Of a DNA stretch of 64,000 bases, positions 10,205 to 61,395 are shown in pieces. The notes below the pieces were generated by a model. It was not told where the DNA came from. It searched no databases and worked only from the letters and a program-made list of their open reading frames with translations. Both the position numbers and the translations under genes were made by a program. This stretch comes from Alphaproteobacteria bacterium. GTDB lineage: Bacteria > Pseudomonadota > Alphaproteobacteria > UBA828. How positions within the stretch are numbered: the stretch's first letter is position 1; every line of letters begins with the position of its first letter. The stretch lies in the NCBI GenBank assembly GCA_963422645.2, contig CAXXVO010000010.1:26303-90302 (forward strand), given 5' to 3'.

Positions 10205-10933
10205 TCAGGAGCGGTTCTTGAAGCGCCAGCTCTCGTTGCCGGTCTCGATGATCTCGCAATGATGGGTGAGGCGATCGAGCAGCGCTGTGGTCATCTTGGG
10301 GTCGCCGAAGACGGATGGCCATTCGCCGAAGGCGAGGTTTGTGGTGATGACGATCGAGGTGCGCTCGTAGAGCCGGCTCATCAGATGGAAGAGCAGCTGC
10401 CCACCGGCCTGGGCGAAGGGCAGGTAGCCGAGCTCGTCGAGGATGACGAAGTCGCGGCGGACGAGCTGGTCTGCAGTGCGGCCCTGGCGTCCGGCGCGAA
10501 GCTCGGCCTCGAGGAGGTTGACCAGGTCGACGACGTTGTAGCACCGGCCGCGCGCGCCCTTGCGGATGCAGGACCGCGCGATGGCGACGGCGAGATGGGT
10601 CTTGCCGGTACCGGTGCCGCCGACCAGCACGATGTTGCGTTTGCCCTCGAGGAAGCCGCCGCCGGCGAGCTCCTGGATCAGGGGCTCGTTGACCGGCGAG
10701 GCGGCGAAGTCGAAGTCGGCCAGCTCCTTGACCGTCGGCAGCTTGGCGGAGGCCATCTGGTACTTGATCGAGCGGGCCCTCTTGTCGGCGATCTCGACCT
10801 GCAGCAGCGTACCGATGATCTGTTGCACCGGATGGCGGCGCTTGAGCCCGTCGGCAAGGATGTCGTCGTAAGCGGCGCGCATACCTGCGAGCTTCAGCTG
10901 GGTCATCATCTCCAGCACATCATGACGCTCCAT
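10205..10933 (-). CDS. istB: IS21 helper ATPase
   Basis: Walker [15 protein letters not shown] and LLDRLTHH. Confidence 0.95.
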
Positions 10934-12434: not shown

Positions 12435-12553
12435 CTCCCCCACCACCCCGTCCGTCCAAACGACGAGGTGTGTTCATGGACACAAATCCAAGGGGGTCAA
12501 TTTTGGACGCCGATCACCCCCAATAGGGGGTCACTTTTCCACGCTTAACAACA

Positions 12554-21542: not shown

Positions 21543-21854
21543 ATGGAATACGCCTTGCGCGATGCCAAGGCTCACCTTTCCAAGCTCATCAGGGACGCTC
21601 AGAACGGCAAACGTGTGGTCATCACCAAGCACGGCGAGCCGGTTGTCGAACTCGTGCGCTGCGCGGGGCGGGGCGGAATCGACTTCGACAAGCTGGAAGC
21701 GGACCGCCGGCGCCTTGGGATCGAGGACGCCTCCCCGGAAGAAGCCGAGGCGATGATCGCCGCCTTTCAAGATCCGGCGCTGAGCCGCCGGGTGCTCGGA
21801 CTCGAAGACAAAACAGTCATGGTCCCCGCGGTTCTGAGCCACCCCGTGGCATGA
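21543..21854 (+). CDS. Phd/YefM family antitoxin; native C-terminus replaced by IS110 read-through
   Basis: MEYALRDAKAHLSKLI...VVITKHGEPVVEL. The reconstructed native end is ...LEDKE* using the TAG at 30658-30660. Confidence 0.88.
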   Translation: MEYALRDAKAHLSKLIRDAQNGKRVVITKHGEPVVELVRCAGRGGIDFDKLEADRRRLGIEDASPEEAEAMIAAFQDPALSRRVLGLEDKTVMVPAVLSHPVA

Positions 21855-21920
21855 AACAGGAGCGGTTCGGCTGACGTTTTCCTTGCGCTTGCACCCATTT
21901 GCCGTGTCAGGATGGGTATT

Positions 21921-22103
21921 GGCGGAGGTGGGGACGTGTGAGCGTCGTTATATCGGTGACGTAGTTCCCGATGACAAAACTGCTTCCGGCGGCCGGCTCC
22001 GCACCCCGTATTGTACCCGGCCCGTGGCCGTGGACGCGCGGCAAATTGCACCGCACCCGCTCGTCGGATGCGTGTTCTTCCGACCGCTGTCCCCGCCTCC
22101 ACC
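21921..22103 (+). ncRNA. Candidate IS110 bridge RNA (repeated in each copy)
   Basis: Lies in the ~350-bp non-coding left end. Closing stem GGCGGAGGTGGGGAC / GTCCCCGCCTCCACC; internal segments match target (GATGACAAA) and donor (CGCGGCAAA). Confidence 0.65.
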
Positions 22104-22165
22104 GTGGCGATGCCACGGCGTGATCGTACGCCGCCGTGGCGAGAGCGCAAATGAGGAGGAAGGCG

Positions 22166-23416
22166 ATGAAGACGGAAGGCTTGCACGTCGTCCGGCCGCG
22201 CGCGGCGGGTCTGGACGTGCACAAGATGGAGATCACCGCGACGGTTCGCCTCTGTGAGGGCGAGGGTGAGCCGGTGGTGGAGACGCGCTGCTTCGGCACG
22301 CTGCCGAGCGGTCTGGAGGAGATGGTCGCGTGGCTGACCGGTCACGGCGTCGAGGCTGCGGTGATGGAAGGGACCGGGGTCTACTGGCAGGCGCCCTTCG
22401 CGGCCCTGGAGGCGGCCGGGCTCGAGGCGATCCTGGTGCATGCGCGTCAGGTGAAGCAGTTGAAGGGGCGCAAGACCGACGTGGCGGACAGCGTGTGGCT
22501 GGCCTGCGTGTGCCAGTTCGGGCTCTGCACGCCTTCCCACGTTCCGCCTGAGCCGTTCCGGGAGCTGCGCGCACTGAGCCGCCAGCGCCGCGTCCTGGTC
22601 AGGCAGCGCTCCGCCGTGCGCAACCGCGTGCAGAAGATCATCGACCGCGCCGGTGCGCGCATCGGCGGCATCCTCTCCGACGTCTTCGGCGTCAACGGCC
22701 GGAAGATCCTCGACGGCCTGGCGCAGGGGACGGCGCGCGAGGTCATCCTCGCCTCGCTCACCAGCCACGTTGCGAACAAGCTGGAGGGGCTCGGCGAGGC
22801 GCTCACCCTGAGCCTGGGCGACAACGACCGCTTCATGCTCAACGACCTGCTGGAGGAGCATGACGCGCTTGAGGCGCGCATCGCGTCCTACACCAGGAAG
22901 ATCGACGGGCAGATGACACCGTGGGAGGAGCAGCTCCGTCTGCTGACCACCATCCCCGGCATCGACCGCACCGCCGCCTCGACCATCCTCATCGAGATCG
23001 GCCCCGACATCGGCGTGTTCGCCTCCAAGGAGCACTTCGCCGCCTGGGCCGGGCTCTGCCCCGGCAACAACGAGAGCGGGGGCAAGCGCCGCAACGCACG
23101 CACCCGCATGGGCTCCAAGACCCTGCGCGCCTGCCTCGTCGAGTGTGCCCACGGCGCGGCCCGAACCAAGGGGTGCCAGTTCGAGGCTCATCACCGCGCC
23201 CTCGCCGCCCGGCGCGGCTACAAGCGCGCCATCGTCGCCGGCGCTCACAAGATGCTGCGCATCATCTATGTGGTGCTCAAGACCGGCAGGCCCTACTACG
23301 ACCGCACGGCCGACTACGACGCTCTGATGGTCAAGCGCAACGCTCCTCGGTGGATCCGCATGCTCCGCCGCTACGGCTACATCGAGCCCGTAGGCGCGGA
23401 ACTCAAGGCCGCCTGA
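22166..23416 (+). CDS. IS110 family recombinase, copy 1
   Basis: RuvC-like DEDD motifs GLDVHK, MEGTG and KTDVAD; Tnp-domain serine in NESGGK; RBS GAGGAGG. Confidence 0.95.
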   Translation: MKTEGLHVVRPRAAGLDVHKMEITATVRLCEGEGEPVVETRCFGTLPSGLEEMVAWLTGHGVEAAVMEGTGVYWQAPFAALEAAGLEAILVHARQVKQLKGRKTDVADSVWLACVCQFGLCTPSHVPPEPFRELRALSRQRRVLVRQRSAVRNRVQKIIDRAGARIGGILSDVFGVNGRKILDGLAQGTAREVILASLTSHVANKLEGLGEALTLSLGDNDRFMLNDLLEEHDALEARIASYTRKIDGQMTPWEEQLRLLTTIPGIDRTAASTILIEIGPDIGVFASKEHFAAWAGLCPGNNESGGKRRNARTRMGSKTLRACLVECAHGAARTKGCQFEAHHRALAARRGYKRAIVAGAHKMLRIIYVVLKTGRPYYDRTADYDALMVKRNAPRWIRMLRRYGYIEPVGAELKAA

Positions 23417-23933
23417 GCGGCCCGCATCTCGTCAGCCGGCTACGCGGGACCGCTTCGGACCACATCGGGGAAGTCCACCGCTCGTCTCCGCCGCGCCGAC
23501 CCTGGCGGTCTCAGCCAACGCCGTGACCTCGGGGTTGGAGCGTCACCGCGCGTCCCTCGCCAGAATCTGTTTCACGGCAAACAGTCATGGTCCCCGCGGT
23601 TCTGAGCCACCCCGTGGCATGAAACAGGAGCGGTTCGGCTGACGTTTTCCTTGCGCTTGCACCCATTTGCCGTGTCAGGATGGGTATTGGCGGAGGTGGG
23701 GACGTGTGAGCGTCGTTATATCGGTGACGTAGTTCCCGATGACAAAACTGCTTCCGGCGGCCGGCTCCGCACCCCGTATTGTACCCGGCCCGTGGCCGTG
23801 GACGCGCGGCAAATTGCACCGCACCCGCTCGTCGGATGCGTGTTCTTCCGACCGCTGTCCCCGCCTCCACCGTGGCGATGCCACGGCGTGATCGTACGCC
23901 GCCGTGGCGAGAGCGCAAATGAGGAGGAAGGCG

Positions 23934-25184
23934 ATGAAGACGGAAGGCTTGCACGTCGTCCGGCCGCGCGCGGCGGGTCTGGACGTGCACAAGATGGAGA
24001 TCACCGCGACGGTTCGCCTCTGTGAGGGCGAGGGTGAGCCGGTGGTGGAGACGCGCTGCTTCGGCACGCTGCCGAGCGGTCTGGAGGAGATGGTCGCGTG
24101 GCTGACCGGTCACGGCGTCGAGGCTGCGGTGATGGAAGGGACCGGGGTCTACTGGCAGGCGCCCTTCGCGGCCCTGGAGGCGGCCGGGCTCGAGGCGATC
24201 CTGGTGCATGCGCGTCAGGTGAAGCAGTTGAAGGGGCGCAAGACCGACGTGGCGGACAGCGTGTGGCTGGCCTGCGTGTGCCAGTTCGGGCTCTGCACGC
24301 CTTCCCACGTTCCGCCTGAGCCGTTCCGGGAGCTGCGCGCACTGAGCCGCCAGCGCCGCGTCCTGGTCAGGCAGCGCTCCGCCGTGCGCAACCGCGTGCA
24401 GAAGATCATCGACCGCGCCGGTGCGCGCATCGGCGGCATCCTCTCCGACGTCTTCGGCGTCAACGGCCGGAAGATCCTCGACGGCCTGGCGCAGGGGACG
24501 GCGCGCGAGGTCATCCTCGCCTCGCTCACCAGCCACGTTGCGAACAAGCTGGAGGGGCTCGGCGAGGCGCTCACCCTGAGCCTGGGCGACAACGACCGCT
24601 TCATGCTCAACGACCTGCTGGAGGAGCATGACGCGCTTGAGGCGCGCATCGCGTCCTACACCAGGAAGATCGACGGGCAGATGACACCGTGGGAGGAGCA
24701 GCTCCGTCTGCTGACCACCATCCCCGGCATCGACCGCACCGCCGCCTCGACCATCCTCATCGAGATCGGCCCCGACATCGGCGTGTTCGCCTCCAAGGAG
24801 CACTTCGCCGCCTGGGCCGGGCTCTGCCCCGGCAACAACGAGAGCGGGGGCAAGCGCCGCAACGCACGCACCCGCATGGGCTCCAAGACCCTGCGCGCCT
24901 GCCTCGTCGAGTGTGCCCACGGCGCGGCCCGAACCAAGGGGTGCCAGTTCGAGGCTCATCACCGCGCCCTCGCCGCCCGGCGCGGCTACAAGCGCGCCAT
25001 CGTCGCCGGCGCTCACAAGATGCTGCGCATCATCTATGTGGTGCTCAAGACCGGCAGGCCCTACTACGACCGCACGGCCGACTACGACGCTCTGATGGTC
25101 AAGCGCAACGCTCCTCGGTGGATCCGCATGCTCCGCCGCTACGGCTACATCGAGCCCGTAGGCGCGGAACTCAAGGCCGCCTGA
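23934..25184 (+). CDS. IS110 family recombinase, copy 2
   Basis: Translation identical to copy 1. Confidence 0.95.
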   Translation: MKTEGLHVVRPRAAGLDVHKMEITATVRLCEGEGEPVVETRCFGTLPSGLEEMVAWLTGHGVEAAVMEGTGVYWQAPFAALEAAGLEAILVHARQVKQLKGRKTDVADSVWLACVCQFGLCTPSHVPPEPFRELRALSRQRRVLVRQRSAVRNRVQKIIDRAGARIGGILSDVFGVNGRKILDGLAQGTAREVILASLTSHVANKLEGLGEALTLSLGDNDRFMLNDLLEEHDALEARIASYTRKIDGQMTPWEEQLRLLTTIPGIDRTAASTILIEIGPDIGVFASKEHFAAWAGLCPGNNESGGKRRNARTRMGSKTLRACLVECAHGAARTKGCQFEAHHRALAARRGYKRAIVAGAHKMLRIIYVVLKTGRPYYDRTADYDALMVKRNAPRWIRMLRRYGYIEPVGAELKAA

Positions 25185-25701
25185 GCGGCCCGCATCTCGT
25201 CAGCCGGCTACGCGGGACCGCTTCGGACCACATCGGGGAAGTCCACCGCTCGTCTCCGCCGCGCCGACCCTGGCGGTCTCAGCCAACGCCGTGACCTCGG
25301 GGTTGGAGCGTCACCGCGCGTCCCTCGCCAGAATCTGTTTCACGGCAAACAGTCATGGTCCCCGCGGTTCTGAGCCACCCCGTGGCATGAAACAGGAGCG
25401 GTTCGGCTGACGTTTTCCTTGCGCTTGCACCCATTTGCCGTGTCAGGATGGGTATTGGCGGAGGTGGGGACGTGTGAGCGTCGTTATATCGGTGACGTAG
25501 TTCCCGATGACAAAACTGCTTCCGGCGGCCGGCTCCGCACCCCGTATTGTACCCGGCCCGTGGCCGTGGACGCGCGGCAAATTGCACCGCACCCGCTCGT
25601 CGGATGCGTGTTCTTCCGACCGCTGTCCCCGCCTCCACCGTGGCGATGCCACGGCGTGATCGTACGCCGCCGTGGCGAGAGCGCAAATGAGGAGGAAGGC
25701 G

Positions 25702-26952
25702 ATGAAGACGGAAGGCTTGCACGTCGTCCGGCCGCGCGCGGCGGGTCTGGACGTGCACAAGATGGAGATCACCGCGACGGTTCGCCTCTGTGAGGGCGAG
25801 GGTGAGCCGGTGGTGGAGACGCGCTGCTTCGGCACGCTGCCGAGCGGTCTGGAGGAGATGGTCGCGTGGCTGACCGGTCACGGCGTCGAGGCTGCGGTGA
25901 TGGAAGGGACCGGGGTCTACTGGCAGGCGCCCTTCGCGGCCCTGGAGGCGGCCGGGCTCGAGGCGATCCTGGTGCATGCGCGTCAGGTGAAGCAGTTGAA
26001 GGGGCGCAAGACCGACGTGGCGGACAGCGTGTGGCTGGCCTGCGTGTGCCAGTTCGGGCTCTGCACGCCTTCCCACGTTCCGCCTGAGCCGTTCCGGGAG
26101 CTGCGCGCACTGAGCCGCCAGCGCCGCGTCCTGGTCAGGCAGCGCTCCGCCGTGCGCAACCGCGTGCAGAAGATCATCGACCGCGCCGGTGCGCGCATCG
26201 GCGGCATCCTCTCCGACGTCTTCGGCGTCAACGGCCGGAAGATCCTCGACGGCCTGGCGCAGGGGACGGCGCGCGAGGTCATCCTCGCCTCGCTCACCAG
26301 CCACGTTGCGAACAAGCTGGAGGGGCTCGGCGAGGCGCTCACCCTGAGCCTGGGCGACAACGACCGCTTCATGCTCAACGACCTGCTGGAGGAGCATGAC
26401 GCGCTTGAGGCGCGCATCGCGTCCTACACCAGGAAGATCGACGGGCAGATGACACCGTGGGAGGAGCAGCTCCGTCTGCTGACCACCATCCCCGGCATCG
26501 ACCGCACCGCCGCCTCGACCATCCTCATCGAGATCGGCCCCGACATCGGCGTGTTCGCCTCCAAGGAGCACTTCGCCGCCTGGGCCGGGCTCTGCCCCGG
26601 CAACAACGAGAGCGGGGGCAAGCGCCGCAACGCACGCACCCGCATGGGCTCCAAGACCCTGCGCGCCTGCCTCGTCGAGTGTGCCCACGGCGCGGCCCGA
26701 ACCAAGGGGTGCCAGTTCGAGGCTCATCACCGCGCCCTCGCCGCCCGGCGCGGCTACAAGCGCGCCATCGTCGCCGGCGCTCACAAGATGCTGCGCATCA
26801 TCTATGTGGTGCTCAAGACCGGCAGGCCCTACTACGACCGCACGGCCGACTACGACGCTCTGATGGTCAAGCGCAACGCTCCTCGGTGGATCCGCATGCT
26901 CCGCCGCTACGGCTACATCGAGCCCGTAGGCGCGGAACTCAAGGCCGCCTGA
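25702..26952 (+). CDS. IS110 family recombinase, copy 3
   Basis: Translation identical to copy 1. Confidence 0.95.
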   Translation: MKTEGLHVVRPRAAGLDVHKMEITATVRLCEGEGEPVVETRCFGTLPSGLEEMVAWLTGHGVEAAVMEGTGVYWQAPFAALEAAGLEAILVHARQVKQLKGRKTDVADSVWLACVCQFGLCTPSHVPPEPFRELRALSRQRRVLVRQRSAVRNRVQKIIDRAGARIGGILSDVFGVNGRKILDGLAQGTAREVILASLTSHVANKLEGLGEALTLSLGDNDRFMLNDLLEEHDALEARIASYTRKIDGQMTPWEEQLRLLTTIPGIDRTAASTILIEIGPDIGVFASKEHFAAWAGLCPGNNESGGKRRNARTRMGSKTLRACLVECAHGAARTKGCQFEAHHRALAARRGYKRAIVAGAHKMLRIIYVVLKTGRPYYDRTADYDALMVKRNAPRWIRMLRRYGYIEPVGAELKAA

Positions 26953-27470
26953 GCGGCCCGCATCTCGTCAGCCGGCTACGCGGGACCGCTTCGGACCACA
27001 TCGGGGAAGTCCACCGCTCGTCTCCGCCGCGCCGACCCTGGCGGTCTCAGCCAACGCCGTGACCTCGGGGTTGGAGCGTCACCGCGCGTCCCTCGCCAGA
27101 ATCTGTTTCACGGCAAAACAGTCATGGTCCCCGCGGTTCTGAGCCACCCCGTGGCATGAAACAGGAGCGGTTCGGCTGACGTTTTCCTTGCGCTTGCACC
27201 CATTTGCCGTGTCAGGATGGGTATTGGCGGAGGTGGGGACGTGTGAGCGTCGTTATATCGGTGACGTAGTTCCCGATGACAAAACTGCTTCCGGCGGCCG
27301 GCTCCGCACCCCGTATTGTACCCGGCCCGTGGCCGTGGACGCGCGGCAAATTGCACCGCACCCGCTCGTCGGATGCGTGTTCTTCCGACCGCTGTCCCCG
27401 CCTCCACCGTGGCGATGCCACGGCGTGATCGTACGCCGCCGTGGCGAGAGCGCAAATGAGGAGGAAGGCG

Positions 27471-28721
27471 ATGAAGACGGAAGGCTTGCACGTCGTCCGG
27501 CCGCGCGCGGCGGGTCTGGACGTGCACAAGATGGAGATCACCGCGACGGTTCGCCTCTGTGAGGGCGAGGGTGAGCCGGTGGTGGAGACGCGCTGCTTCG
27601 GCACGCTGCCGAGCGGTCTGGAGGAGATGGTCGCGTGGCTGACCGGTCACGGCGTCGAGGCTGCGGTGATGGAAGGGACCGGGGTCTACTGGCAGGCGCC
27701 CTTCGCGGCCCTGGAGGCGGCCGGGCTCGAGGCGATCCTGGTGCATGCGCGTCAGGTGAAGCAGTTGAAGGGGCGCAAGACCGACGTGGCGGACAGCGTG
27801 TGGCTGGCCTGCGTGTGCCAGTTCGGGCTCTGCACGCCTTCCCACGTTCCGCCTGAGCCGTTCCGGGAGCTGCGCGCACTGAGCCGCCAGCGCCGCGTCC
27901 TGGTCAGGCAGCGCTCCGCCGTGCGCAACCGCGTGCAGAAGATCATCGACCGCGCCGGTGCGCGCATCGGCGGCATCCTCTCCGACGTCTTCGGCGTCAA
28001 CGGCCGGAAGATCCTCGACGGCCTGGCGCAGGGGACGGCGCGCGAGGTCATCCTCGCCTCGCTCACCAGCCACGTTGCGAACAAGCTGGAGGGGCTCGGC
28101 GAGGCGCTCACCCTGAGCCTGGGCGACAACGACCGCTTCATGCTCAACGACCTGCTGGAGGAGCATGACGCGCTTGAGGCGCGCATCGCGTCCTACACCA
28201 GGAAGATCGACGGGCAGATGACACCGTGGGAGGAGCAGCTCCGTCTGCTGACCACCATCCCCGGCATCGACCGCACCGCCGCCTCGACCATCCTCATCGA
28301 GATCGGCCCCGACATCGGCGTGTTCGCCTCCAAGGAGCACTTCGCCGCCTGGGCCGGGCTCTGCCCCGGCAACAACGAGAGCGGGGGCAAGCGCCGCAAC
28401 GCACGCACCCGCATGGGCTCCAAGACCCTGCGCGCCTGCCTCGTCGAGTGTGCCCACGGCGCGGCCCGAACCAAGGGGTGCCAGTTCGAGGCTCATCACC
28501 GCGCCCTCGCCGCCCGGCGCGGCTACAAGCGCGCCATCGTCGCCGGCGCTCACAAGATGCTGCGCATCATCTATGTGGTGCTCAAGACCGGCAGGCCCTA
28601 CTACGACCGCACGGCCGACTACGACGCTCTGATGGTCAAGCGCAACGCTCCTCGGTGGATCCGCATGCTCCGCCGCTACGGCTACATCGAGCCCGTAGGC
28701 GCGGAACTCAAGGCCGCCTGA
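27471..28721 (+). CDS. IS110 family recombinase, copy 4
   Basis: Translation identical to copy 1. Confidence 0.95.
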   Translation: MKTEGLHVVRPRAAGLDVHKMEITATVRLCEGEGEPVVETRCFGTLPSGLEEMVAWLTGHGVEAAVMEGTGVYWQAPFAALEAAGLEAILVHARQVKQLKGRKTDVADSVWLACVCQFGLCTPSHVPPEPFRELRALSRQRRVLVRQRSAVRNRVQKIIDRAGARIGGILSDVFGVNGRKILDGLAQGTAREVILASLTSHVANKLEGLGEALTLSLGDNDRFMLNDLLEEHDALEARIASYTRKIDGQMTPWEEQLRLLTTIPGIDRTAASTILIEIGPDIGVFASKEHFAAWAGLCPGNNESGGKRRNARTRMGSKTLRACLVECAHGAARTKGCQFEAHHRALAARRGYKRAIVAGAHKMLRIIYVVLKTGRPYYDRTADYDALMVKRNAPRWIRMLRRYGYIEPVGAELKAA

Positions 28722-29239
28722 GCGGCCCGCATCTCGTCAGCCGGCTACGCGGGACCGCTTCGGACCACATCGGGGAAGTCCACCGCTCGTCTCCGCCGCG
28801 CCGACCCTGGCGGTCTCAGCCAACGCCGTGACCTCGGGGTTGGAGCGTCACCGCGCGTCCCTCGCCAGAATCTGTTTCACGGCAAAACAGTCATGGTCCC
28901 CGCGGTTCTGAGCCACCCCGTGGCATGAAACAGGAGCGGTTCGGCTGACGTTTTCCTTGCGCTTGCACCCATTTGCCGTGTCAGGATGGGTATTGGCGGA
29001 GGTGGGGACGTGTGAGCGTCGTTATATCGGTGACGTAGTTCCCGATGACAAAACTGCTTCCGGCGGCCGGCTCCGCACCCCGTATTGTACCCGGCCCGTG
29101 GCCGTGGACGCGCGGCAAATTGCACCGCACCCGCTCGTCGGATGCGTGTTCTTCCGACCGCTGTCCCCGCCTCCACCGTGGCGATGCCACGGCGTGATCG
29201 TACGCCGCCGTGGCGAGAGCGCAAATGAGGAGGAAGGCG

Positions 29240-30490
29240 ATGAAGACGGAAGGCTTGCACGTCGTCCGGCCGCGCGCGGCGGGTCTGGACGTGCACAAGA
29301 TGGAGATCACCGCGACGGTTCGCCTCTGTGAGGGCGAGGGTGAGCCGGTGGTGGAGACGCGCTGCTTCGGCACGCTGCCGAGCGGTCTGGAGGAGATGGT
29401 CGCGTGGCTGACCGGTCACGGCGTCGAGGCTGCGGTGATGGAAGGGACCGGGGTCTACTGGCAGGCGCCCTTCGCGGCCCTGGAGGCGGCCGGGCTCGAG
29501 GCGATCCTGGTGCATGCGCGTCAGGTGAAGCAGTTGAAGGGGCGCAAGACCGACGTGGCGGACAGCGTGTGGCTGGCCTGCGTGTGCCAGTTCGGGCTCT
29601 GCACGCCTTCCCACGTTCCGCCTGAGCCGTTCCGGGAGCTGCGCGCACTGAGCCGCCAGCGCCGCGTCCTGGTCAGGCAGCGCTCCGCCGTGCGCAACCG
29701 CGTGCAGAAGATCATCGACCGCGCCGGTGCGCGCATCGGCGGCATCCTCTCCGACGTCTTCGGCGTCAACGGCCGGAAGATCCTCGACGGCCTGGCGCAG
29801 GGGACGGCGCGCGAGGTCATCCTCGCCTCGCTCACCAGCCACGTTGCGAACAAGCTGGAGGGGCTCGGCGAGGCGCTCACCCTGAGCCTGGGCGACAACG
29901 ACCGCTTCATGCTCAACGACCTGCTGGAGGAGCATGACGCGCTTGAGGCGCGCATCGCGTCCTACACCAGGAAGATCGACGGGCAGATGACACCGTGGGA
30001 GGAGCAGCTCCGTCTGCTGACCACCATCCCCGGCATCGACCGCACCGCCGCCTCGACCATCCTCATCGAGATCGGCCCCGACATCGGCGTGTTCGCCTCC
30101 AAGGAGCACTTCGCCGCCTGGGCCGGGCTCTGCCCCGGCAACAACGAGAGCGGGGGCAAGCGCCGCAACGCACGCACCCGCATGGGCTCCAAGACCCTGC
30201 GCGCCTGCCTCGTCGAGTGTGCCCACGGCGCGGCCCGAACCAAGGGGTGCCAGTTCGAGGCTCATCACCGCGCCCTCGCCGCCCGGCGCGGCTACAAGCG
30301 CGCCATCGTCGCCGGCGCTCACAAGATGCTGCGCATCATCTATGTGGTGCTCAAGACCGGCAGGCCCTACTACGACCGCACGGCCGACTACGACGCTCTG
30401 ATGGTCAAGCGCAACGCTCCTCGGTGGATCCGCATGCTCCGCCGCTACGGCTACATCGAGCCCGTAGGCGCGGAACTCAAGGCCGCCTGA
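29240..30490 (+). CDS. IS110 family recombinase, copy 5
   Basis: Translation identical to copy 1. Confidence 0.95.
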   Translation: MKTEGLHVVRPRAAGLDVHKMEITATVRLCEGEGEPVVETRCFGTLPSGLEEMVAWLTGHGVEAAVMEGTGVYWQAPFAALEAAGLEAILVHARQVKQLKGRKTDVADSVWLACVCQFGLCTPSHVPPEPFRELRALSRQRRVLVRQRSAVRNRVQKIIDRAGARIGGILSDVFGVNGRKILDGLAQGTAREVILASLTSHVANKLEGLGEALTLSLGDNDRFMLNDLLEEHDALEARIASYTRKIDGQMTPWEEQLRLLTTIPGIDRTAASTILIEIGPDIGVFASKEHFAAWAGLCPGNNESGGKRRNARTRMGSKTLRACLVECAHGAARTKGCQFEAHHRALAARRGYKRAIVAGAHKMLRIIYVVLKTGRPYYDRTADYDALMVKRNAPRWIRMLRRYGYIEPVGAELKAA

Positions 30491-30673
30491 GCGGCCCGCA
30501 TCTCGTCAGCCGGCTACGCGGGACCGCTTCGGACCACATCGGGGAAGTCCACCGCTCGTCTCCGCCGCGCCGACCCTGGCGGTCTCAGCCAACGCCGTGA
30601 CCTCGGGGTTGGAGCGTCACCGCGCGTCCCTCGCCAGAATCTGTTTCACGGCAAGAATAGCGGCCGAACACCG

Positions 30674-54293: not shown

Positions 54294-54438
54294 TGTCAAT
54301 CGGCTTTCAATACTGACCCCCGATCGGCGTGCAAAATTGACCCCCCTGAGTGGCACGGCGGAGGTTGTCCCGGTAGCCAATAGGGGGGACCCGCGCGGCT
54401 TCGTGTGGCGCCCTGCGCTACGCGGAGCGAAGCCGCGT
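54294..54438 (-). mobile_element. IS21 terminal fragment
   Basis: Matches 10003-10147. Confidence 0.9.
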
Positions 54439-54537
54439 TGAGCGTGCGCCCAGCATTTGATGGTGCGGTTTTCGGATTATTTGATGTTCGTGATGCGGCG
54501 CTTGGTTGATCTGCGAGAGCGGTGAGTGGCCTGGCTT

Positions 54538-57175
54538 TCATCGAGACCGCAGGAGCATCTCGTTCCAGTCCTTGGCGTGTCGTGGGCGCAACCTTTTCAC
54601 CCTTGGATCGTTGAGCACGAGATGCTCGGCGGCAGTGTCGCCGGCGCTGTCTGCGTCGTAGGCACAGACGATGCGACGTGGCTTCCACTCCTTGATCCAG
54701 GGCGGGACCGAGCTGGCGATGCCGGCGGTTGAGGCGACGACGGCGCCGTTCTCGCGCGTCCCCTCGACGCGCAGGCTTCGTGCAGAGATGGCGTCGACGG
54801 CGCTCTCGGTGAGGATGACGAGGGCGGGCTGGTTTCGGTCGCAGTGGAGCCAGAAGCCGCCACGCGCCTTGCGCGATCCCGGGGCCATGCCCCTGAAGCG
54901 TTTGCCGTGAAACAGATTCTGGCGAGGGACGCGCGGTGACGCTCCAACCCCGAGGTCACGGCGTTGGCTGAGACCGCCAGGGTCGGCGCGGCGGAGACGA
55001 GCGGTGGACTTCCCCGATGTGGTCCGAAGCGGTCCCGCGTAGCCGGCTGACGAGATGCGGGCCGCTCAGGCGGCCTTGAGTTCCGCGCCTACGGGCTCGA
55101 TGTAGCCGTAGCGGCGGAGCATGCGGATCCACCGAGGAGCGTTGCGCTTGACCATCAGAGCGTCGTAGTCGGCCGTGCGGTCGTAGTAGGGCCTGCCGGT
55201 CTTGAGCACCACATAGATGATGCGCAGCATCTTGTGAGCGCCGGCGACGATGGCGCGCTTGTAGCCGCGCCGGGCGGCGAGGGCGCGGTGATGAGCCTCG
55301 AACTGGCACCCCTTGGTTCGGGCCGCGCCGTGGGCACACTCGACGAGGCAGGCGCGCAGGGTCTTGGAGCCCATGCGGGTGCGTGCGTTGCGGCGCTTGC
55401 CCCCGCTCTCGTTGTTGCCGGGGCAGAGCCCGGCCCAGGCGGCGAAGTGCTCCTTGGAGGCGAACACGCCGATGTCGGGGCCGATCTCGATGAGGATGGT
55501 CGAGGCGGCGGTGCGGTCGATGCCGGGGATGGTGGTCAGCAGACGGAGCTGCTCCTCCCACGGTGTCATCTGCCCGTCGATCTTCCTGGTGTAGGACGCG
55601 ATGCGCGCCTCAAGCGCGTCATGCTCCTCCAGCAGGTCGTTGAGCATGAAGCGGTCGTTGTCGCCCAGGCTCAGGGTGAGCGCCTCGCCGAGCCCCTCCA
55701 GCTTGTTCGCAACGTGGCTGGTGAGCGAGGCGAGGATGACCTCGCGCGCCGTCCCCTGCGCCAGGCCGTCGAGGATCTTCCGGCCGTTGACGCCGAAGAC
55801 GTCGGAGAGGATGCCGCCGATGCGCGCACCGGCGCGGTCGATGATCTTCTGCACGCGGTTGCGCACGGCGGAGCGCTGCCTGACCAGGACGCGGCGCTGG
55901 CGGCTCAGTGCGCGCAGCTCCCGGAACGGCTCAGGCGGAACGTGGGAAGGCGTGCAGAGCCCGAACTGGCACACGCAGGCCAGCCACACGCTGTCCGCCA
56001 CGTCGGTCTTGCGCCCCTTCAACTGCTTCACCTGACGCGCATGCACCAGGATCGCCTCGAGCCCGGCCGCCTCCAGGGCCGCGAAGGGCGCCTGCCAGTA
56101 GACCCCGGTCCCTTCCATCACCGCAGCCTCGACGCCGTGACCGGTCAGCCACGCGACCATCTCCTCCAGACCGCTCGGCAGCGTGCCGAAGCAGCGCGTC
56201 TCCACCACCGGCTCACCCTCGCCCTCACAGAGGCGAACCGTCGCGGTGATCTCCATCTTGTGCACGTCCAGACCCGCCGCGCGCGGCCGGACGACGTGCA
56301 AGCCTTCCGTCTTCATCGCCTTCCTCCTCATTTGCGCTCTCGCCACGGCGGCGTACGATCACGCCGTGGCATCGCCACGGTGGAGGCGGGGACAGCGGTC
56401 GGAAGAACACGCATCCGACGAGCGGGTGCGGTGCAATTTGCCGCGCGTCCACGGCCACGGGCCGGGTACAATACGGGGTGCGGAGCCGGCCGCCGGAAGC
56501 AGTTTTGTCATCGGGAACTACGTCACCGATATAACGACGCTCACACGTCCCCACCTCCGCCAATACCCATCCTGACACGGCAAATGGGTGCAAGCGCAAG
56601 GAAAACGTCAGCCGAACCGCTCCTGTTTCATGCCACGGGGTGGCTCAGAACCGCGGGGACCATGACTGTTTTGTTCCGGGCTGCGGCGCGGTGCCGAGGA
56701 TCTCGGCGCCGGTCGTGTGCCCGCTGGCGTTTCGGCAGATGAAGACGGCGTTGATCCTGTCATCGGCGTAGAGGAGGCCTCGGCCGTGGCAGGCTTCGAG
56801 CACGTCGGTGCCGATAGCGCGTTGGCGGATGAGGGCGTCCCGGACCCTGGGCCAGGCGCGGGGACTGGGCCTTGGCAGCCGCAGGCGTCGCGGGGCGGCT
56901 GGGATGGTGGTGATCTCCCTCCGCCCCTCATGGCTTCCGAGGAAGCGGAGGGCTTCCGGGAAGCGGCATCCCGTCGCATGGATGACGAGGTCGATGGCGC
57001 CACCCCCTCCCGTGCCGCGCAGGTGATCGAAGAACTTCTCGCCGTTGATGCTGATGACCGAGCCCCCGCGCTTGAAGCGCGCCCGGTCGGTCGGGTCTCT
57101 GCGGTAGCCGAGGGCGGCGGCGACCCGGTCGAGGGGGATGTTGCGGCAGGTGGCCAGGGGATCGCCGCCGCTCAT
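54538..57175 (-). pseudogene. DUF3991 + Toprim primase-like protein split by IS110 (57175-56670 and 54901-54538)
   Basis: GGGAIDLV, LYADDRINAVF, TESAVDAIS, AYDADSAG and KDWNE. Removing the IS restores the frame ...PGTKRFRGMAPGS. Confidence 0.8.
54904..56669 (-). mobile_element. Sixth copy of the 1766-bp IS110 element (recombinase CDS 55066-56316)
   Basis: Same ends and identical translation as the tandem copies. Confidence 0.95.
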
Positions 57176-57277
57176 TGCCGGGTCCCGGCGAAGGTCTGCT
57201 TGGAAGGGAGGCTGACGGCGTTCCCGTTCCTGTACCCTTCAACGCTTAAGAGTTCCGGGAACGGGAACGGGAACGCC

Positions 57278-58276
57278 TCATCCCGCACTTCCGTTGATGG
57301 CGGCAGGGGATTGCGGCTCCCGGTGCGCCTCGGCGGCTGCGAGGCGATAGCCACCCCTGGGCGCCCGTTCGATGCGCCCCTCCCTGGTGAGGCTCTCGAT
57401 GGCGGCAACGACGGTGGCGTTGCGGGCAGCGGCGCGTGAGCGGATCTGGGCTTTCGAGAGCGGCTTTTCGGCCTGCTCGATCGCCTTGAAGACGCGCTGC
57501 TCGACGGTGGCGGGCTCGTGCCTGTCTTCATCTGCCGCGTCCTGGTGCAGACGGAAGGCCGGCCCATGTCCGCCGTCGACGAGTTCCAGCTCGATGTCGT
57601 TGAGGCCCCGGGCGTCGCGCTGCTCGACCGTCATGACGATCTTCTTGTCGCGCCGGCGCAGGTACAGATTTGAGTCACCCCAAGCGTGCAGCTCGCTGCT
57701 CCCGCGCAGGGCCTGCCCCGGCCGGGTGCCGCCGCTCTTGCGGGCGTGGTGGACGAGGAGGACGGCGGTTTCGAAGCGGCGCTGCAGTTCGCGCAGGAAG
57801 CCGAGGATGGGGGCGATCTCTGCGACGGCGTTCTCGTCGACGCTGTGCAGGCGGACCAGGGGATCGAGGATCAGGAGGCGCGGTTCGATGCGCTCCACGG
57901 TCTCCTGCAGGCGCTGACGGTCGATGCGCTGGTCGAGACGCAGGGTGGGCACGTCGATGACGGCGATGTCGAGTTCGTCGAAGGGGGTGGCGGCGGCGCG
58001 GGCGATCCCCTGCAGACGCTTGCGCACCCTGTGGCCGGCGTCCTCGGCGGCGAAGAGCAGCACGGTGCCGCTTGCGCTGGGGCGGTAGTGGCGCAGGCAT
58101 GGGACGCCGGTGGCCACGGCGACGGCGAGATCGAGCGCGAGCAGGGATTTGCCGCACTTGGGCTCGCCGCCGACGATGCCCACGGCCTGCTCGGCCCACA
58201 GCGTGTCCACCATCCACTGTTGCGCCCGGGGGCGATCCTCGAGCTGCATCGGCGCCCGTGTCGGGAAGCCCTTCAC
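57278..58276 (-). CDS. RecA/DnaB-fold AAA ATPase (AAA_25, RSF1010 RepA-like helicase); may extend to 57172 via a frameshift
   Basis: GEPKCGKS, FAAED, LLILDPL, LLVHHARK and LRGSS; GTG start overlaps the ExeA stop. Confidence 0.82.
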   Translation of the reverse strand: MKGFPTRAPMQLEDRPRAQQWMVDTLWAEQAVGIVGGEPKCGKSLLALDLAVAVATGVPCLRHYRPSASGTVLLFAAEDAGHRVRKRLQGIARAAATPFDELDIAVIDVPTLRLDQRIDRQRLQETVERIEPRLLILDPLVRLHSVDENAVAEIAPILGFLRELQRRFETAVLLVHHARKSGGTRPGQALRGSSELHAWGDSNLYLRRRDKKIVMTVEQRDARGLNDIELELVDGGHGPAFRLHQDAADEDRHEPATVEQRVFKAIEQAEKPLSKAQIRSRAAARNATVVAAIESLTREGRIERAPRGGYRLAAAEAHREPQSPAAINGSAG

Positions 58277-59106
58277 CGCCGTGCCCTCTTCGGCTTGGCG
58301 GGCTCGCCCAGGATCTCCATGAAGAGCTTCTCGTCGAGAACCTCGCGGTTCTTCTCGGCGCCGGCGGCGAGCAGCATGTCGCCCATGACGGTAAGCGCCC
58401 TGGGGTTGCCGCCGGCGTGGGTGACCAGGGTGTCCTTGAGCTCTGCGCTCATGAGGCCCGGATTGCCGGCCTGCTCGACCAGATGGTCGAGCAGGGCCGC
58501 GAGGTCGCCGGCGTCTGCCTGGGTCATGACCAGGCGCTGGCGCAGGCGCGAGGCGATGGGCTGCAAGTCGGGCTGGCGGAGCCTGTCGATCAGGCGGCTG
58601 TCGCCGGCGAAGACGACCGAGAGGATGGCGCGCGAGTCGAAGTCGGTGGACGCCAGCAGGCGGATCTCGGAGATCACCGAGGGCAGCAGCTCCTGGGCCT
58701 CGTCGATGAGCACCACGGGCCGCATGCGGGTGTCGTCGACATGGGTGAGCCATCGCTCGCGCAGGTTTTTGAAGCTGGCCCAGCGGTTGTTGTACATCAG
58801 GTCGACGCCGAACATCCCGCCGATCTCGCGGTAGAAGTCGGACAGCCTGGAAGAGGGGTGGGTGATGGCACAGACCCTGAGCCCGTCCGAGCGGCCGAGG
58901 CGGTCGGCGAGCACGCGCAACGCCACGCTCTTTCCGGTGCCGGGCTCGCCGGCGATCAACGCGAAGCCGCCCTGGCGCACAAGATGATGCTCGATTCTGA
59001 GGCAGAAGCTGTCGACGGCGGGGCTCACCATGAGGCTGTCGACCGGAAGGTCGGTGGCGAAGGGGTTCCATTTGAGCCCGTAGAAGGTGAGCAGCTCGCG
59101 GTTCAT
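58273..59106 (-). CDS. ExeA-family AAA+ ATPase (MuB/TnsC-like transposition partner)
   Basis: FYGLKWNPF, GEPGTGKS, VLIDEAQ and GGNPR. Confidence 0.88.
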   Translation of the reverse strand: MNRELLTFYGLKWNPFATDLPVDSLMVSPAVDSFCLRIEHHLVRQGGFALIAGEPGTGKSVALRVLADRLGRSDGLRVCAITHPSSRLSDFYREIGGMFGVDLMYNNRWASFKNLRERWLTHVDDTRMRPVVLIDEAQELLPSVISEIRLLASTDFDSRAILSVVFAGDSRLIDRLRQPDLQPIASRLRQRLVMTQADAGDLAALLDHLVEQAGNPGLMSAELKDTLVTHAGGNPRALTVMGDMLLAAGAEKNREVLDEKLFMEILGEPAKPKRARR

Positions 59107-60578
59107 GACGGATCTCCCTGATCGTCGTCCTCGCCCGGACCGGGCGTCTTGTTATGGGGTACCCAGGCCGGCGGCAGGCCTGTTGCGGCCTGGGCGTCGA
59201 GCACGCCCTTGAGCAGCGGCGGAAGTTCGCCGACGCCCGCGCTGGCGCCGCCATGGTCGCTGCCGGGTCTCGCAGGACGGCGGACGCCATCGGCGTTGCC
59301 GCGCTTGTCGAGGGGGTACAGCGTGCACAGCCGCTCGCCGCTTCGGCCTTCCACCAGATCGACGCCGCTGAGGTCCCAGCGCGCATAGCGGACCCAGAGC
59401 GTCCTCAGGTGGCGCCACGGCTGTGGCACCTGGTAGCGGATGCCCTCGACCGAGACGGTGCCGTCCGAGCGCCTGAGCGTGCGCTTCCTGGCGATGCGGA
59501 AGGCCGCCTTGAGCTCGTCCGAGGCGGGGCAGGGCCTCGATGCCTTGACGCTCCCGGCGAGGCGTTCATGCGGCGTCATGCCGAGCTCGCGGTGCACCCG
59601 CCGATGGTAGTCCTGCTCCAGCCAGGCTATGGTGGCGTCGTTGAGCATCTTCAGGGTGAGCGCGTCGACGCCTTCGAGCTGAGCCATCAGGCGGCCCTCG
59701 ACCGTGCCCCAGAACGACTCGATTTTTCCATTTTGATGGGGGCTGTAAGCGAGTGTCGTGGCCCCCACGATGCCGAGGCGGTGCAAGCCCTCCTCGACCT
59801 CGCCCGCCGTCATCGGCCCGCCGTTGTCGGTCAGCAGGGACCTGGGCAAGTCCCTCTTCATGAAGGCCTGACAGAGCCCGTGGACGAAGACCTCGGCGGT
59901 CTCCTCCAGGTACCACTGCAGGTGGCAGCCAAGCCTGGAGTGGTCGTCGAGGAAGCCGAGCAGGATGGGCGTCTGCCATTCGCCCGACGCCGTCAGCACG
60001 CGGCGCTTGCCGTGGTGGAAGTCCCCGTGCCACAGCGCGTGACTGCGAGACACCTCGTAGCTAAGGACCTCGCGGGCTTCGACCGCCGGCTTGTCCTCAC
60101 CCTCGTGCCACTTCCTGGGGCGCTCGCGCACCAGGCCGCGATTGCGCATCGCCCGCGTCAGCGTCGCGTAGGACGGCATCGGGCCGAGCTCGGGATGGGT
60201 CGCAACATGAGCCTTGAGGGTCTCGTAGTGGAGCTGCGCCGCCCACGAGGGATGGACCCGGTACTGCTCGCGCAGCGCCGCGATCAGCCCCGCCGACATG
60301 GACCGCTCGCGGCCGACGTCGGTCCGAGGCTTCCGGCGCAGCGCCTTGACCGGGTCCTGCTCCTCTGCCCGCGCCCGGTAGTACCAGCGCTCGATCGTCG
60401 AGGCCGCAAAGCGCACCGGCCCCTTGCCCGACGGGTGCTCCCAGTCGCGCTGCGACAGACGCTCGAACTCGGCCCCCAGCTGGCCTGCAGGCGGCAGTGA
60501 AGCCAGAAGCGGCCCCACCACCGCAAAGCGCAGCCGGGCCCACTTCTCGCGCCTGGCGCCTGCGTCGTCCTTGTCCAT
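59103..60578 (-). CDS. DDE integrase/transposase (rve core, Mu/IS481-like)
   Basis: HTH, WHGDF, LDDHSR, TDNG, NGKIESF and a Mu-type C-terminal DGTVSVEGIRYQVP. Confidence 0.9.
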   Translation of the reverse strand: MDKDDAGARREKWARLRFAVVGPLLASLPPAGQLGAEFERLSQRDWEHPSGKGPVRFAASTIERWYYRARAEEQDPVKALRRKPRTDVGRERSMSAGLIAALREQYRVHPSWAAQLHYETLKAHVATHPELGPMPSYATLTRAMRNRGLVRERPRKWHEGEDKPAVEAREVLSYEVSRSHALWHGDFHHGKRRVLTASGEWQTPILLGFLDDHSRLGCHLQWYLEETAEVFVHGLCQAFMKRDLPRSLLTDNGGPMTAGEVEEGLHRLGIVGATTLAYSPHQNGKIESFWGTVEGRLMAQLEGVDALTLKMLNDATIAWLEQDYHRRVHRELGMTPHERLAGSVKASRPCPASDELKAAFRIARKRTLRRSDGTVSVEGIRYQVPQPWRHLRTLWVRYARWDLSGVDLVEGRSGERLCTLYPLDKRGNADGVRRPARPGSDHGGASAGVGELPPLLKGVLDAQAATGLPPAWVPHNKTPGPGEDDDQGDPS

Positions 60579-60627
60579 TCCGGCATCCCTCCCTCGCCGC
60601 ATCGGAGAGATGCCCATGTAGAACGCC

Positions 60628-61245
60628 CTATCCGGGCGTGACAGGAACACTTTCTGCGGGCGGCGCCGAGCCATCGCCGAGCCCGCAATAGCCCGTCCAC
60701 GGCTTGAACCAGATCAGGCTCAGGAACAGACGCTCACCGAAGCGTCCGCCCCGCATCTGCCGCAGCACGAAGAGCAGCGGCACCTCCTCGGGTGGCATCA
60801 CCAGTTCGCCACGCTTCGCTCCCCAGGGCTCCGTCGCCGGGAACGCCTCCAGCCACCACTTCCGCCAGCGGCGCAGTGTGGCGACCGAGACCCCCCACTT
60901 CCGCTTGATCGTCTGCAACCGCACCCCGCCTCTCAGAACCAGTGCACTCAACAGAACGAACAGGGCGCCCAGATAAAAGCGGCGCCCGAAGAATCGTACC
61001 GATGGTGGGGTCGCTCGCAGGCGGCAATCCGCGCAGCAGAAGCTGAACCGCCGCGTGCCCTCTTCCCTCAACTCGGCTGCCAGACCGTACGGCTTGCGCG
61101 GATACGTCGCGCTGTGCAGCTTGCCGGGGCAGTGTCGGCAGCCCGCCTCGCGGCAGCGCGCCGCCTCGGCCTCATCGACCTCGCGCAGCCAGGCCCAGAC
61201 CAGGGCGTTGCAAAGCATGGAGTGGCGGAAAATGTTGTGCGACAT
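60628..61245 (-). CDS. Zn-finger + HTH accessory protein (DUF6431-like)
   Basis: CRHC...CADC, TPPSVRFFGRRFY and VSVATLRRWRKWW; first gene inside the transposon end. Confidence 0.7.
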   Translation of the reverse strand: MSHNIFRHSMLCNALVWAWLREVDEAEAARCREAGCRHCPGKLHSATYPRKPYGLAAELREEGTRRFSFCCADCRLRATPPSVRFFGRRFYLGALFVLLSALVLRGGVRLQTIKRKWGVSVATLRRWRKWWLEAFPATEPWGAKRGELVMPPEEVPLLFVLRQMRGGRFGERLFLSLIWFKPWTGYCGLGDGSAPPAESVPVTPG

Positions 61246-61395
61246 TGGGGCCGTCTCTGGCGATTGTGACCGTCACCACGAGACAAAGCCCCCCGGCGAA
61301 CTTCTTGCAAGTTCGCCGAGGGGCACCCGCCCCAAAACCTCAACAAATCCGAGCGGATCAGGCCCCGATCCCCGCTGAAAGACCGCGCGCGCTCA

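Follow-up and report, generated by a model that had tools for sequence, protein, structure and literature searches.

Does a bacterial DDE transposon that carries genes for a helicase and a primase use them to replicate itself? This question is raised by positions 54439-61395 of the window (the whole stretch of 64,000 nucleotides analysed here, from an alphaproteobacterial host genome of 5.9 Mb in 23 contigs), for which a first-pass annotation, made from the letters alone, had proposed a discrete DDE plus AAA+ transposon of ~5.2 kb, without an inserted IS110, that carries helicase and primase as one replication module. The stretch is one copy of a recently active, multi-copy DDE transposon, disrupted by an IS110-family insertion and 5,189 bp long without it. 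The proposed module did not survive in that form: the helicase, together with an adjacent palindrome, is the invariable core, whereas the primase is present in a minority of members. That the element loads its own helicase to replicate its transposition intermediate is a functional reading that we consider about evenly balanced between right and wrong.

The terminal 11-nt inverted repeat by itself is not above chance (780 inverted pairs occur in the region, and this one is absent from the 25 longest), so that the ends are established by the comparison of copies. The transposase matches 31 places in the host genome, 14 of them at full length, and in a BLAST search of the region against this genome, copies break exactly at 54439 and 61395. 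Searches with the exact 30-nt ends gave 26 left and 23 right ends, which form 12 left-right pairs: seven of 5,189-5,192 bp, two of 6,957 bp (with the IS110), two of ~7,352 bp and one of 9,036 bp. Complete copies number at least 7. The TGAGCG(T/C)GCGC ends and their related inner motifs, both read correctly in the first pass, are TGAGCGTGCGC on the left, i.e. the end far from the operon start, and TGAGCGCGCGC on the right (the reverse complement of 61385-61395), with 10 of 11 bases matching; the inner motifs occupy 54472-54488 and 61336-61352.

Perfect 5-bp target duplications (GGGAA, CCTGC and CAAGG) flank 3 of the 12 pairs and 4-bp duplications flank another 2, whereas the remaining 7, including the window copy (CGCGT vs. 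TCGTC), have none. We assume that recombination among the many copies, as the simplest explanation, produced those that lack a duplication; a search for their reciprocal flanks yielded only chance-level 5-mer matches. The empty site of a reference copy, L013, was present in contigs of three of the four public runs, where the flanks are joined without the element and share 5 letters. The 5-bp duplications and the empty site fix the ends and hence place the helicase and the primase inside the mobile unit. Copies ending right after the gene for the ExeA-type (AAA_22) ATPase, which would assign the helicase and the primase to the target DNA, were looked for, and there were none among the copies compared.

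The five genes of the element all lie on the minus strand, with the start/stop overlaps that had been noted before (ATGA at 59103-59106 and GTGA at 58273-58276); in the latter, the GTG start of the helicase overlaps the stop codon of the AAA_22 gene, so that the two genes are translationally coupled. The transposition genes have a known counterpart. The transposase (triad D218, D283, E319) is 47.6% identical (E = 7e-130) to the 'IS481 family transposase' of Tn6049, found on plasmids and the chromid of Cupriavidus metallidurans, the AAA_22 ATPase (Walker A 53-60, Walker B 133-138) is 50% identical to the 'gspA' ATPase of Tn6049 (E = 3e-94), and the protein encoded by the first gene, which combines four cysteines (Cys4) with a helix-turn-helix (HTH), is 42% identical to its orf1 (E = 1e-33). 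The order of these first three genes is the same in Tn6049 (pMOL28), as is a distal pair of CCATCAAT..CGTGCTC subterminal repeats, and both elements have short terminal repeats starting with TG, although the terminal 11-12 nt differ (TGTGCATAAGCA in Tn6049 vs. TGAGCGYGCGC here). However, in place of the helicase, the hexamer palindrome and the primase, none of which it has, Tn6049 carries a plain hairpin and a hypothetical fourth gene of 90 aa. Thus, with this replacement and a length of 5,189 bp, the window element is, on comparison of the sequences, a relative of Tn6049 and not Tn6049 itself. In C. metallidurans CH34, Tn6049 is described as 3.5 kb long and present in 12 copies, all with the 'gspA' ATPase (PMC2864759), and as having 12-bp inverted repeats and 4-bp direct repeats (PMC4739549), vs. 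4-5 bp here; the accessible parts of these two papers make no mention of relatives that bear a helicase or a primase.

The protein encoded by the fourth gene resembles the RepA helicase of plasmid RSF1010: its residues 32-196 match PDB 1g8y, this replicative hexameric helicase, at E = 8e-9. Walker A (37-44), Walker B (D138) and an HHARK motif (176-180) are present, and an RGSS stretch aligns with that of RepA, with R191, G192 and S194 invariant in 38 sequences. The PHROG matches are to primase/helicase and DnaB-like families; the only NCBIfam match is a weak one to RadA/Sms (E = 1e-3). The last ~100 residues form a winged helix, as indicated by GntR/MarR/IclR-type Pfam matches in homologues and a weak AbiEi match.

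When a genome collection was searched with the helicase, 35 loci were recovered from 19 metagenome-assembled genomes (MAGs), and a metagenome collection contained at least 586 stretches with relatives, of which 80 were examined. The helicase is directly preceded by the AAA_22 gene in 33 of the 35 genome loci (the exceptions are a frameshifted lone helicase and a fragment) and in 75 of the 75 metagenome loci with room upstream, the other 5 starting at a contig edge. Across the metagenome loci, identity to the window proteins is ~50% for transposase, ATPase and helicase alike. This co-divergence, together with the strict linkage, indicates that the helicase is a core gene of the family and not recent cargo. 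In a second class of relatives, with ends of the TGTTGT...ACAACA type and a transposase that is ~27% identical to that of the window and has a Mu transposase C-terminal domain, the helicase is nevertheless ~70% identical; either transposon lineages have exchanged the helicase module, or this module is under far stronger constraint than the transposase.

Directly after the helicase gene, and overlapping its stop codon, lies a palindrome, each arm of which repeats a hexamer three times (GTTCCC x3 ... GGGAAC x3, as read on the strand of the genes). The first-pass annotation had singled out 57218-57276 as a possible site of replication, and this interval is indeed a conserved cis element. Folding of single sequences of the palindrome as single-stranded DNA recovered the long hairpin and gave z-scores of −4.4 and −6.2 for the two strands, and weak z-scores of −1.6 and −0.5 for the palindromes of two relatives; RNAalifold, applied to a MAFFT alignment of the region in which the repeat units slip, did not recover the long hairpin. 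By eye, the palindrome was found in 16 of 16 elements. A strict automated test detected it in 36 of 71 metagenome loci vs. 0 of 770 control windows, a gapless criterion in 30 of 71 loci vs. 0 of 188 controls, and a further criterion in 15 of 73; these automated counts are conservative, as many of the 'negatives' look degenerate by eye (without a formal count).

The hexamer unit differs by lineage (GGGAAC, GGTAAC, GGAAAC or GGAACC), with both arms changing together, and the presumed recognition-helix motif of the helicase goes along with the unit: RNA(T/S)V in 8 of 8 elements with GGGAAC, RPATV in 2 of 3 with GGTAAC and R(H/N)KTV in 3 of 4 with GGAACC. This covariation, which comes from few lineages, suggests that the winged helix reads the hexamers. 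The distal end of the transposon is 105-199 nt past the helicase stop codon in 19 of the 25 metagenome loci with a recognisable distal end, and in the inspected sequences of compact relatives, the palindrome abuts the two distal subterminal repeats. It is therefore part of the architecture of one transposon end. These repeats are likely transposase binding sites; the CATCAAA..GCGTG pair precedes the GCTCA end in relatives and occurs also in Tn6049. Between the palindrome and the distal end lie the primase gene in the window lineage and a non-coding module in others. We infer that the palindrome is a candidate site for binding of the winged helix and loading of the helicase.

The primase gene is split by the IS110 in the window but intact in copy L013 (L013:600-1469), where it encodes 289 aa with DUF3991 and Toprim_2 domains. 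Sequence search of the intact protein against the PDB gave no match. The AlphaFold model (40 sequences; predicted local distance difference test, pLDDT, 89.6) showed the reconstructed protein to fold like the DnaG and T7 gp4 primases, the comparison that the first pass had left to be made: in Foldseek, all listed matches with E <= 1e-3 are primases of the DnaG type or primase-helicases (Aquifex primase at 1.5e-7, Twinkle, T7 gp4, E. coli DnaG and T4 gp61), and Toprim nucleases (JetD and a Toprim nuclease) appear in this list only near E = 1e-2. The model thus predicts a primase of the DnaG-type fold. E201, D251 and D253 are invariant. The N-terminal domain has no conserved cysteines and is accordingly zinc-less; it aligns weakly with a primase zinc-binding domain, 1d0q (E = 0.028). 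The best PADLOC match is the DnaG-like domain of a DRT model (E = 3e-9). On plasmids, the protein is most similar (30-38% identity) to Toprim domains that form fusions with MobV relaxases. Such fusions are carried by 2.9-kb plasmids of Paracoccus aestuarii (H28/H29), where the fusion may be the main replication and mobilisation protein, and by cyanobacterial plasmids (H30-H38).

The primase is present in 6 of the 35 genome loci (4 MAGs) and in 1 of the 80 metagenome loci. A different primase of the DnaG type, with a canonical CHC2 zinc ribbon and a Toprim domain, follows helicase and palindrome in a distant family member (L071:2566-3498); it was identified by a Pfam scan of the 10 longest downstream open reading frames (ORFs), and both primases were searched against all loci by tblastn. 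The two primases have no pairwise similarity (E = 0.11). The presence of two dissimilar primases at one position argues that priming is relevant to the role of the helicase.

Other relatives have a structured non-coding module of ~130 nt in the place of the primase (L025:~9050-9260, L015:~9040-9235, L023:~4090-4300, L024:~4880-5090 and L030:~1670-1880); its carriers include four-gene relatives and second-class relatives. Of its 48 predicted pairs, 6 show compensatory changes (5 sequences), the loops are GNRA-like, and G-U pairs put the structure on the gene strand. The module may act as RNA or as a single-strand DNA signal, and it conceivably substitutes for the primase. A version in the host genome, L055:~1480-1620 (G000:C12:~125780-125920, G000 being the host genome), with a different outer stem sequence but with the pairing kept, lies downstream of an unrelated DDE_Tnp_1 transposase; thus, the module is not tied to one transposon family. 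In the metagenome relatives L061, L078, L110, L119 and L121, another conserved non-coding stretch, of the GAAACGGAG...GGGATAGCC type, follows the palindrome. Rfam had no match for the element, the palindrome or any of these 3' non-coding modules.

The first-pass annotation had envisaged a five-gene synteny with the same ends and target duplications in other genomes, and this was recovered for four of the five genes. The order Cys4/HTH, DDE, AAA_22, AAA_25 (the helicase) is kept across the genome loci, and the metagenome loci that reach further upstream also hold the DDE and Cys4/HTH genes, whereas the fifth gene, the primase, is mostly missing. Four complete MAG chromosomes each have several identical copies, of the four-gene form without primase in three (4,354-4,409 bp) and of a five-gene form in one (5,160 bp; its primase is 47% identical to that of the window). 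All 17 intact copies in these chromosomes have ends of the TGAGCG...GCTCA type and all 17 are flanked by target duplications, which measure 4 bp in 3 copies and 5 bp in the other 14 (6 bp as read in one of these). The family is abundant: single genomes can contain dozens of copies, and the protein clusters that share at least 68% identity with the helicase exceed 120 in number. In the class of the host it is rare: one of 400 other sampled genomes of the host class had a helicase match, which was partial and 45% identical, and none of 3 genomes of the host family had one. The long contigs with the element are only from Alphaproteobacteria and Gammaproteobacteria, apart from one Binatia fragment; the phylum labels of the MAG contigs of 2.5-4.5 kb (Acidobacteriota, Chloroflexota, Gemmatimonadota and Acidimicrobiales) may be errors in the binning of a multi-copy repeat. 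Two short contigs of element size start exactly at the end sequence, and one also stops at the distal end, i.e. they are collapsed repeats, not permuted circles.

If the element does load its own helicase, the DDE transposase and its AAA+ partner would join the 3' ends of the element to the target, as in Mu and Tn552-type elements, and the winged helix would recruit the helicase to the hexamer palindrome at the distal end. The loaded helicase would unwind the DNA, and the branched transposition intermediate would be replicated across the element, with primers coming from the element's primase where there is one and otherwise from the host. Such transposition would be independent of host-specific pathways for restart or helicase loading, the primase would lower host dependence further, and the payoff would be a gain in copy number and a wide host range. 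A more specific claim is put forward tentatively, with rather less than even expectation that it will hold: that these elements make up a 'self-priming' DDE family, in which a ring helicase with its loading site in one transposon end allows an element-directed primosome to replicate the intermediate, and in which lineages complete the kit by two unrelated DnaG-type primases or by conserved structured non-coding modules at the same position, which might serve as primer or priming signal. Such a family would link transposons and replicons in bacteria and would account for the spread across distant hosts.

Several points weigh against replication by an element-loaded helicase. DNA synthesis across the element is a prediction, and simple insertions with target duplications fit replicative and conservative transposition alike. 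No element ORF has a DNA polymerase domain, and the element lacks both a separate initiator gene and a resolvase with which cointegrates could be resolved. Tn6049 spreads without a helicase (its 12 copies are documented in the accessible part of PMC2864759), so that the DDE/AAA+ core does not need one. The palindrome, just past a stop codon, might instead stabilise an RNA or act as an operator or terminator, although it is without a T-run. The covariation between hexamer unit and winged helix comes from few lineages, and the helicase tree, the backbone of which lacks resolution, did not separate the order of primase gain and loss or of exchange between the classes. The primase, moreover, is dispensable for the family. 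The IS110-broken element itself bears on this: a second copy with the IS110 (G000:C18:61466-68422) matches the window copy at 100% identity across all 6,957 bp and has the 5-bp duplication CCTGC at its flanks, and a third, truncated copy (G000:C13:129934-132381) has the IS110 at the same place. The broken element, with two copies at unrelated sites, probably had no primase of its own when it was copied, although it may have had help in trans, or the IS110 may have inserted site-specifically more than once.

An episomal phase would account for some of the same features. Here, an excised or copied-out circle would replicate like a small plasmid, with the helicase-winged helix protein as initiator, the palindrome as origin and, in the window lineage, the element's own primase, and then re-integrate; this phase would help establishment after transfer to new hosts. 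Iteron-like repeats beside a helicase with its own DNA-binding domain, the membership of the RepA-like helicase in a plasmid replication family, the relaxase-fused Toprim proteins that are the nearest plasmid relatives of the primase (one of them on a 2.9-kb plasmid) and the patchy spread (MAGs labelled as several phyla vs. 1 of 400 genomes of the host class) are all in keeping with it. However, no end-to-end circle junction was seen in the contigs of the four runs, which is weak evidence, as contigs drop rare forms and cannot show absence; there is no head-to-tail junction in the host genome, and the element-size contigs start and stop at the element ends and are not permuted. Furthermore, neither 72,556 plasmid records nor viral contigs yielded a close relative of the helicase, and the palindrome of compact relatives, located at the extreme end of the element next to the transposase sites, is more easily reconciled with an end-linked role than with that of an internal origin. 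We regard an episomal phase as unlikely.

The helicase-like protein might, instead, serve transposition without replicating anything, as an accessory that binds or remodels the ends or as an autoregulator of the operon, with the primase an incidental passenger; it could mark the distal end, control assembly or disassembly of the transpososome, confer immunity or choose targets. That its gene is strictly linked to, and translationally coupled with, that of the AAA+ transposition ATPase would be expected under such a role, as would a candidate site that abuts the transposase-binding repeats and the lack of a primase in most members, and RecA-fold ring ATPases also include non-replicative ones, the only NCBIfam match being the weak one to RadA/Sms (E = 1e-3). 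This reading, too, is improbable in our assessment: the best relatives of known function are replicative helicases and primase-helicases, two unrelated DnaG-type primases at the same position are hard to explain without a link to priming, and Tn6049 recognises its ends without an AAA_25 protein. Pairs of an ATPase and a Toprim protein are known from defence systems (OLD, Gabija and PARIS), and cargo is frequent in transposons in the interval from the core genes to the distal end, but that helicase and primase are plain cargo with no role in mobility, such as a defence module or a plasmid or prophage remnant, is very improbable despite JetD and a Toprim nuclease at E ~1e-2 in the fold list, given that PADLOC produced no meaningful match, that the helicase co-diverges with the transposase over ~50% divergence and is never missing, whereas cargo is normally variable, and that it has a conserved cis site within the end architecture.

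Table 1 Features of the transposon copy at 54439-61395 of the window, with their positions, strand and evidence.
Feature	Position	Strand	Evidence
Distal terminal inverted repeat TGAGCGTGCGC	54439-54449		Sequence; many genomic copies break here in BLAST; 26 exact 30-nt left ends
Distal subterminal repeats, two ATTTGATG units (CATCAAAT on gene strand)	54452-54490		Sequence
Primase C-terminal fragment, Toprim domain	54538-54888	-	Pfam Toprim_2, E 3.9e-10
IS110-family insertion splitting the primase gene	54904-56667	-	Pfam DEDD_Tnp_IS110, Transposase_20
Primase N-terminal fragment (zinc-less N-domain + DUF3991)	56668-57175 (ORF 56645-57175)	-	Pfam DUF3991; AlphaFold; Foldseek
Hexamer-repeat palindrome	57205-57290		Overlaps helicase stop codon, before primase; inverted repeat I1 of repeat finder
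RepA(RSF1010)-like RecA-fold helicase-type ATPase + C-terminal winged helix, 332 aa	57278-58276	-	Pfam AAA_25, E 3e-36
MuB/TniB/ExeA-type AAA+ transposition ATPase, 277 aa	58273-59106	-	Pfam AAA_22, E 6e-19
rve-type DDE transposase, 523 aa, N-terminal HTH_32	59103-60674	-	Pfam rve, rve_3, HTH_32
Small Cys4 (CxxC x2) + HTH protein, 205 aa	60628-61245	-	HTH_23, E 0.0018, below Pfam cutoff; Tn6049 orf1 homologue
16-bp stem hairpin, then T-rich run	61288-61324	-	Terminator-like site in copy L013; conserved in relatives
Gene-proximal subterminal motif and terminal inverted repeat	61336-61352; 61385-61395		23 exact 30-nt right ends; conserved in relatives

Among the features in Table 1, the transposase scores (rve, rve_3 and HTH_32) are each below Pfam's own cutoff, and the true start of the gene may lie downstream of 60674. 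In the Cys4/HTH protein, which has a putative role in DNA binding or regulation, C36, C39, C70, C71 and C74 are invariant; its model (pLDDT 66) gave no fold match at E <= 0.001, the protein gave no match to TniQ, and an assignment to DUF6431, which Atlas neighbours carry, was unconfirmed by Pfam at E <= 0.01. The hairpin lies upstream of the operon, a short way in from the gene-proximal end, and may act either as an operator or as an insulator that blocks outside read-through. The IS110 (transposase gene at 55066-56346) is inserted between two GTTT; in BLAST, other copies run from 54903 straight on to 56668, the two matches overlapping by 4 nt, so that most copies are without it.

The limits of the element coincide with those of IS21 and IS66 fragments, as the first pass had noted. 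The left flank (54294-54438) is the terminal 145 bp of a 2,551-bp IS21-family element (IstA/IstB), with an IS1380-type fragment (DDE_Tnp_1_4) to the left of this remnant, and the right flank is an IS66 transposase fragment that begins at the end of the element. A complete copy of the IS21-family element, which has ~70 copies, lies at 10003-12553 of the window; its IstA has a Mu transposase C-terminal domain. The host genome is saturated with insertion sequences (IS21, IS66, IS110 and IS1380-type), many of them nested. The IS110 that splits the primase also forms head-to-tail arrays, of 5 copies at 21808-30654 of the window (G000:C11:48110-56956) and of 3 copies at G000:C10:44758-50068, in which neighbours overlap by 4 nt; this would fit an IS110 that recreates its own target at its junction.

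With regard to class, the element has the core of the Mu/Tn552/Tn5053/Tn7 superfamily, i.e. an rve-fold DDE transposase (rve below the Pfam cutoff) with an intact triad next to an AAA+ ATPase. In PHROG, the transposase matches phrog_310, a phage transposase family (E = 6e-35), and the ATPase phrog_296, 'DNA transposition protein' (E = 6e-19). Partners known from this superfamily (TnsA, TniQ/TnsD, the TniR/BinL resolvase and phage genes) were not found among the ORFs or the Pfam and NCBIfam matches; nor, as stated in the first pass, did the ORFs and Pfam matches of the element include a resolvase, conjugation or capsid gene. Sequence search against the PDB gave no match of the element's proteins to MuA, MuB or TnsC. 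Membership in IS481 was rejected (NCBIfam transpos_IS481 at 117.3 bits vs. a cutoff of 224, in a unit of four to five genes), as was membership in IS21 (transpos_IS21 at 37 bits vs. a cutoff of 160, with the ATPase matching AAA_22 and not IstB_IS21); the genuine IS21 in the same window does match the IS21 profile. A phage satellite or an island resembling phage-inducible chromosomal islands would have a tyrosine or serine integrase and an att site instead of the DDE transposase and target duplications seen here, and would have packaging or capsid-redirecting genes, whereas the window element has no further genes. An IncQ/RSF1010-type replicon shares only the RepA-like helicase: the primase is of the DnaG type, there is no RepC-like ORF, and the copies are chromosomal insertions. 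A self-synthesizing transposon (casposon or Polinton) was rejected in the absence of an element-encoded DNA polymerase.

A full-text literature search, with ISfinder and TnCentral outside its scope, found no description of a bacterial DDE transposon that encodes both a helicase and a primase. The earlier remark that no named family has this architecture therefore holds in part: the transposition core is homologous to that of Tn6049, whereas for the architecture of helicase and end-linked palindrome, as read from the sequence, no published description was found. Replicative bacterial DDE transposons are thought to borrow the replication-restart machinery of the host. If the proposed mechanism is true, the family would show how DDE elements free themselves from host factors, would provide a tractable system for the hand-over from transpososome to replisome, and would be a prokaryotic case between plain transposons and self-replicating elements. 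Being abundant, the family also matters for the annotation of genomes and MAGs, where the element collapses into contigs of 4-5 kb.

Among known systems, the nearest functional precedent found for a primase/helicase that acts with a DDE transposase at the DNA-synthesis step is IEE, a PrimPol-helicase described, in the accessible part of the report, as enhancing the excision of copy-out-paste-in insertion sequences (bioRxiv 10.1101/2023.06.07.543989). However, as described there, IEE is encoded elsewhere in the genome, is a PrimPol (archaeo-eukaryotic primase type) and promotes loss of the insertion sequence, whereas the genes discussed here lie within the transposon and are of the DnaG and RepA types. 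Casposons and Polintons, as far as the available text of PMC4046053 covers them, likewise encode their own replication proteins but have a DNA polymerase combined with Cas1 or a retroviral-type integrase.

Like the window element, Mu and the Tn552/Tn5053 elements (TniA/TniB) pair a DDE transposase of the rve type with an AAA+ protein, have ends with multiple sites and make 5-bp duplications; the resolvase (TniR/BinL), TniQ and phage genes of Tn5053- and Mu-type elements have no counterpart in the window element. For replication after strand transfer, Mu depends on the restart primosome of the host, whereas the window element has its own helicase and, in some members, its own primase. The catalytic cores of T7 gp4, Twinkle, T4 gp61 and DnaG match the model of the window primase, and the helicase is of the RecA-fold ring-helicase type; here, however, there are two separate genes, helicase then primase, and the primase is without a helicase-binding C-terminal domain. 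The alpha protein of phage P4 joins primase, helicase and a C-terminal origin-binding winged helix in one chain.

The arrangement in RSF1010/IncQ shares several parts: as here, a RepA-like helicase stands beside short direct repeats and a palindrome and is accompanied by a primase that the element encodes. RSF1010 has a RepC initiator and a RepB'-type primase, whereas the window element has a DNA-binding domain fused to the helicase and a primase of the DnaG type, and the module of RSF1010 sits on a plasmid, whereas that of the window element lies inside a DDE transposon, at its end. Priming in RSF1010 is independent of the host, and it is this logic to which that of the window element can be likened.

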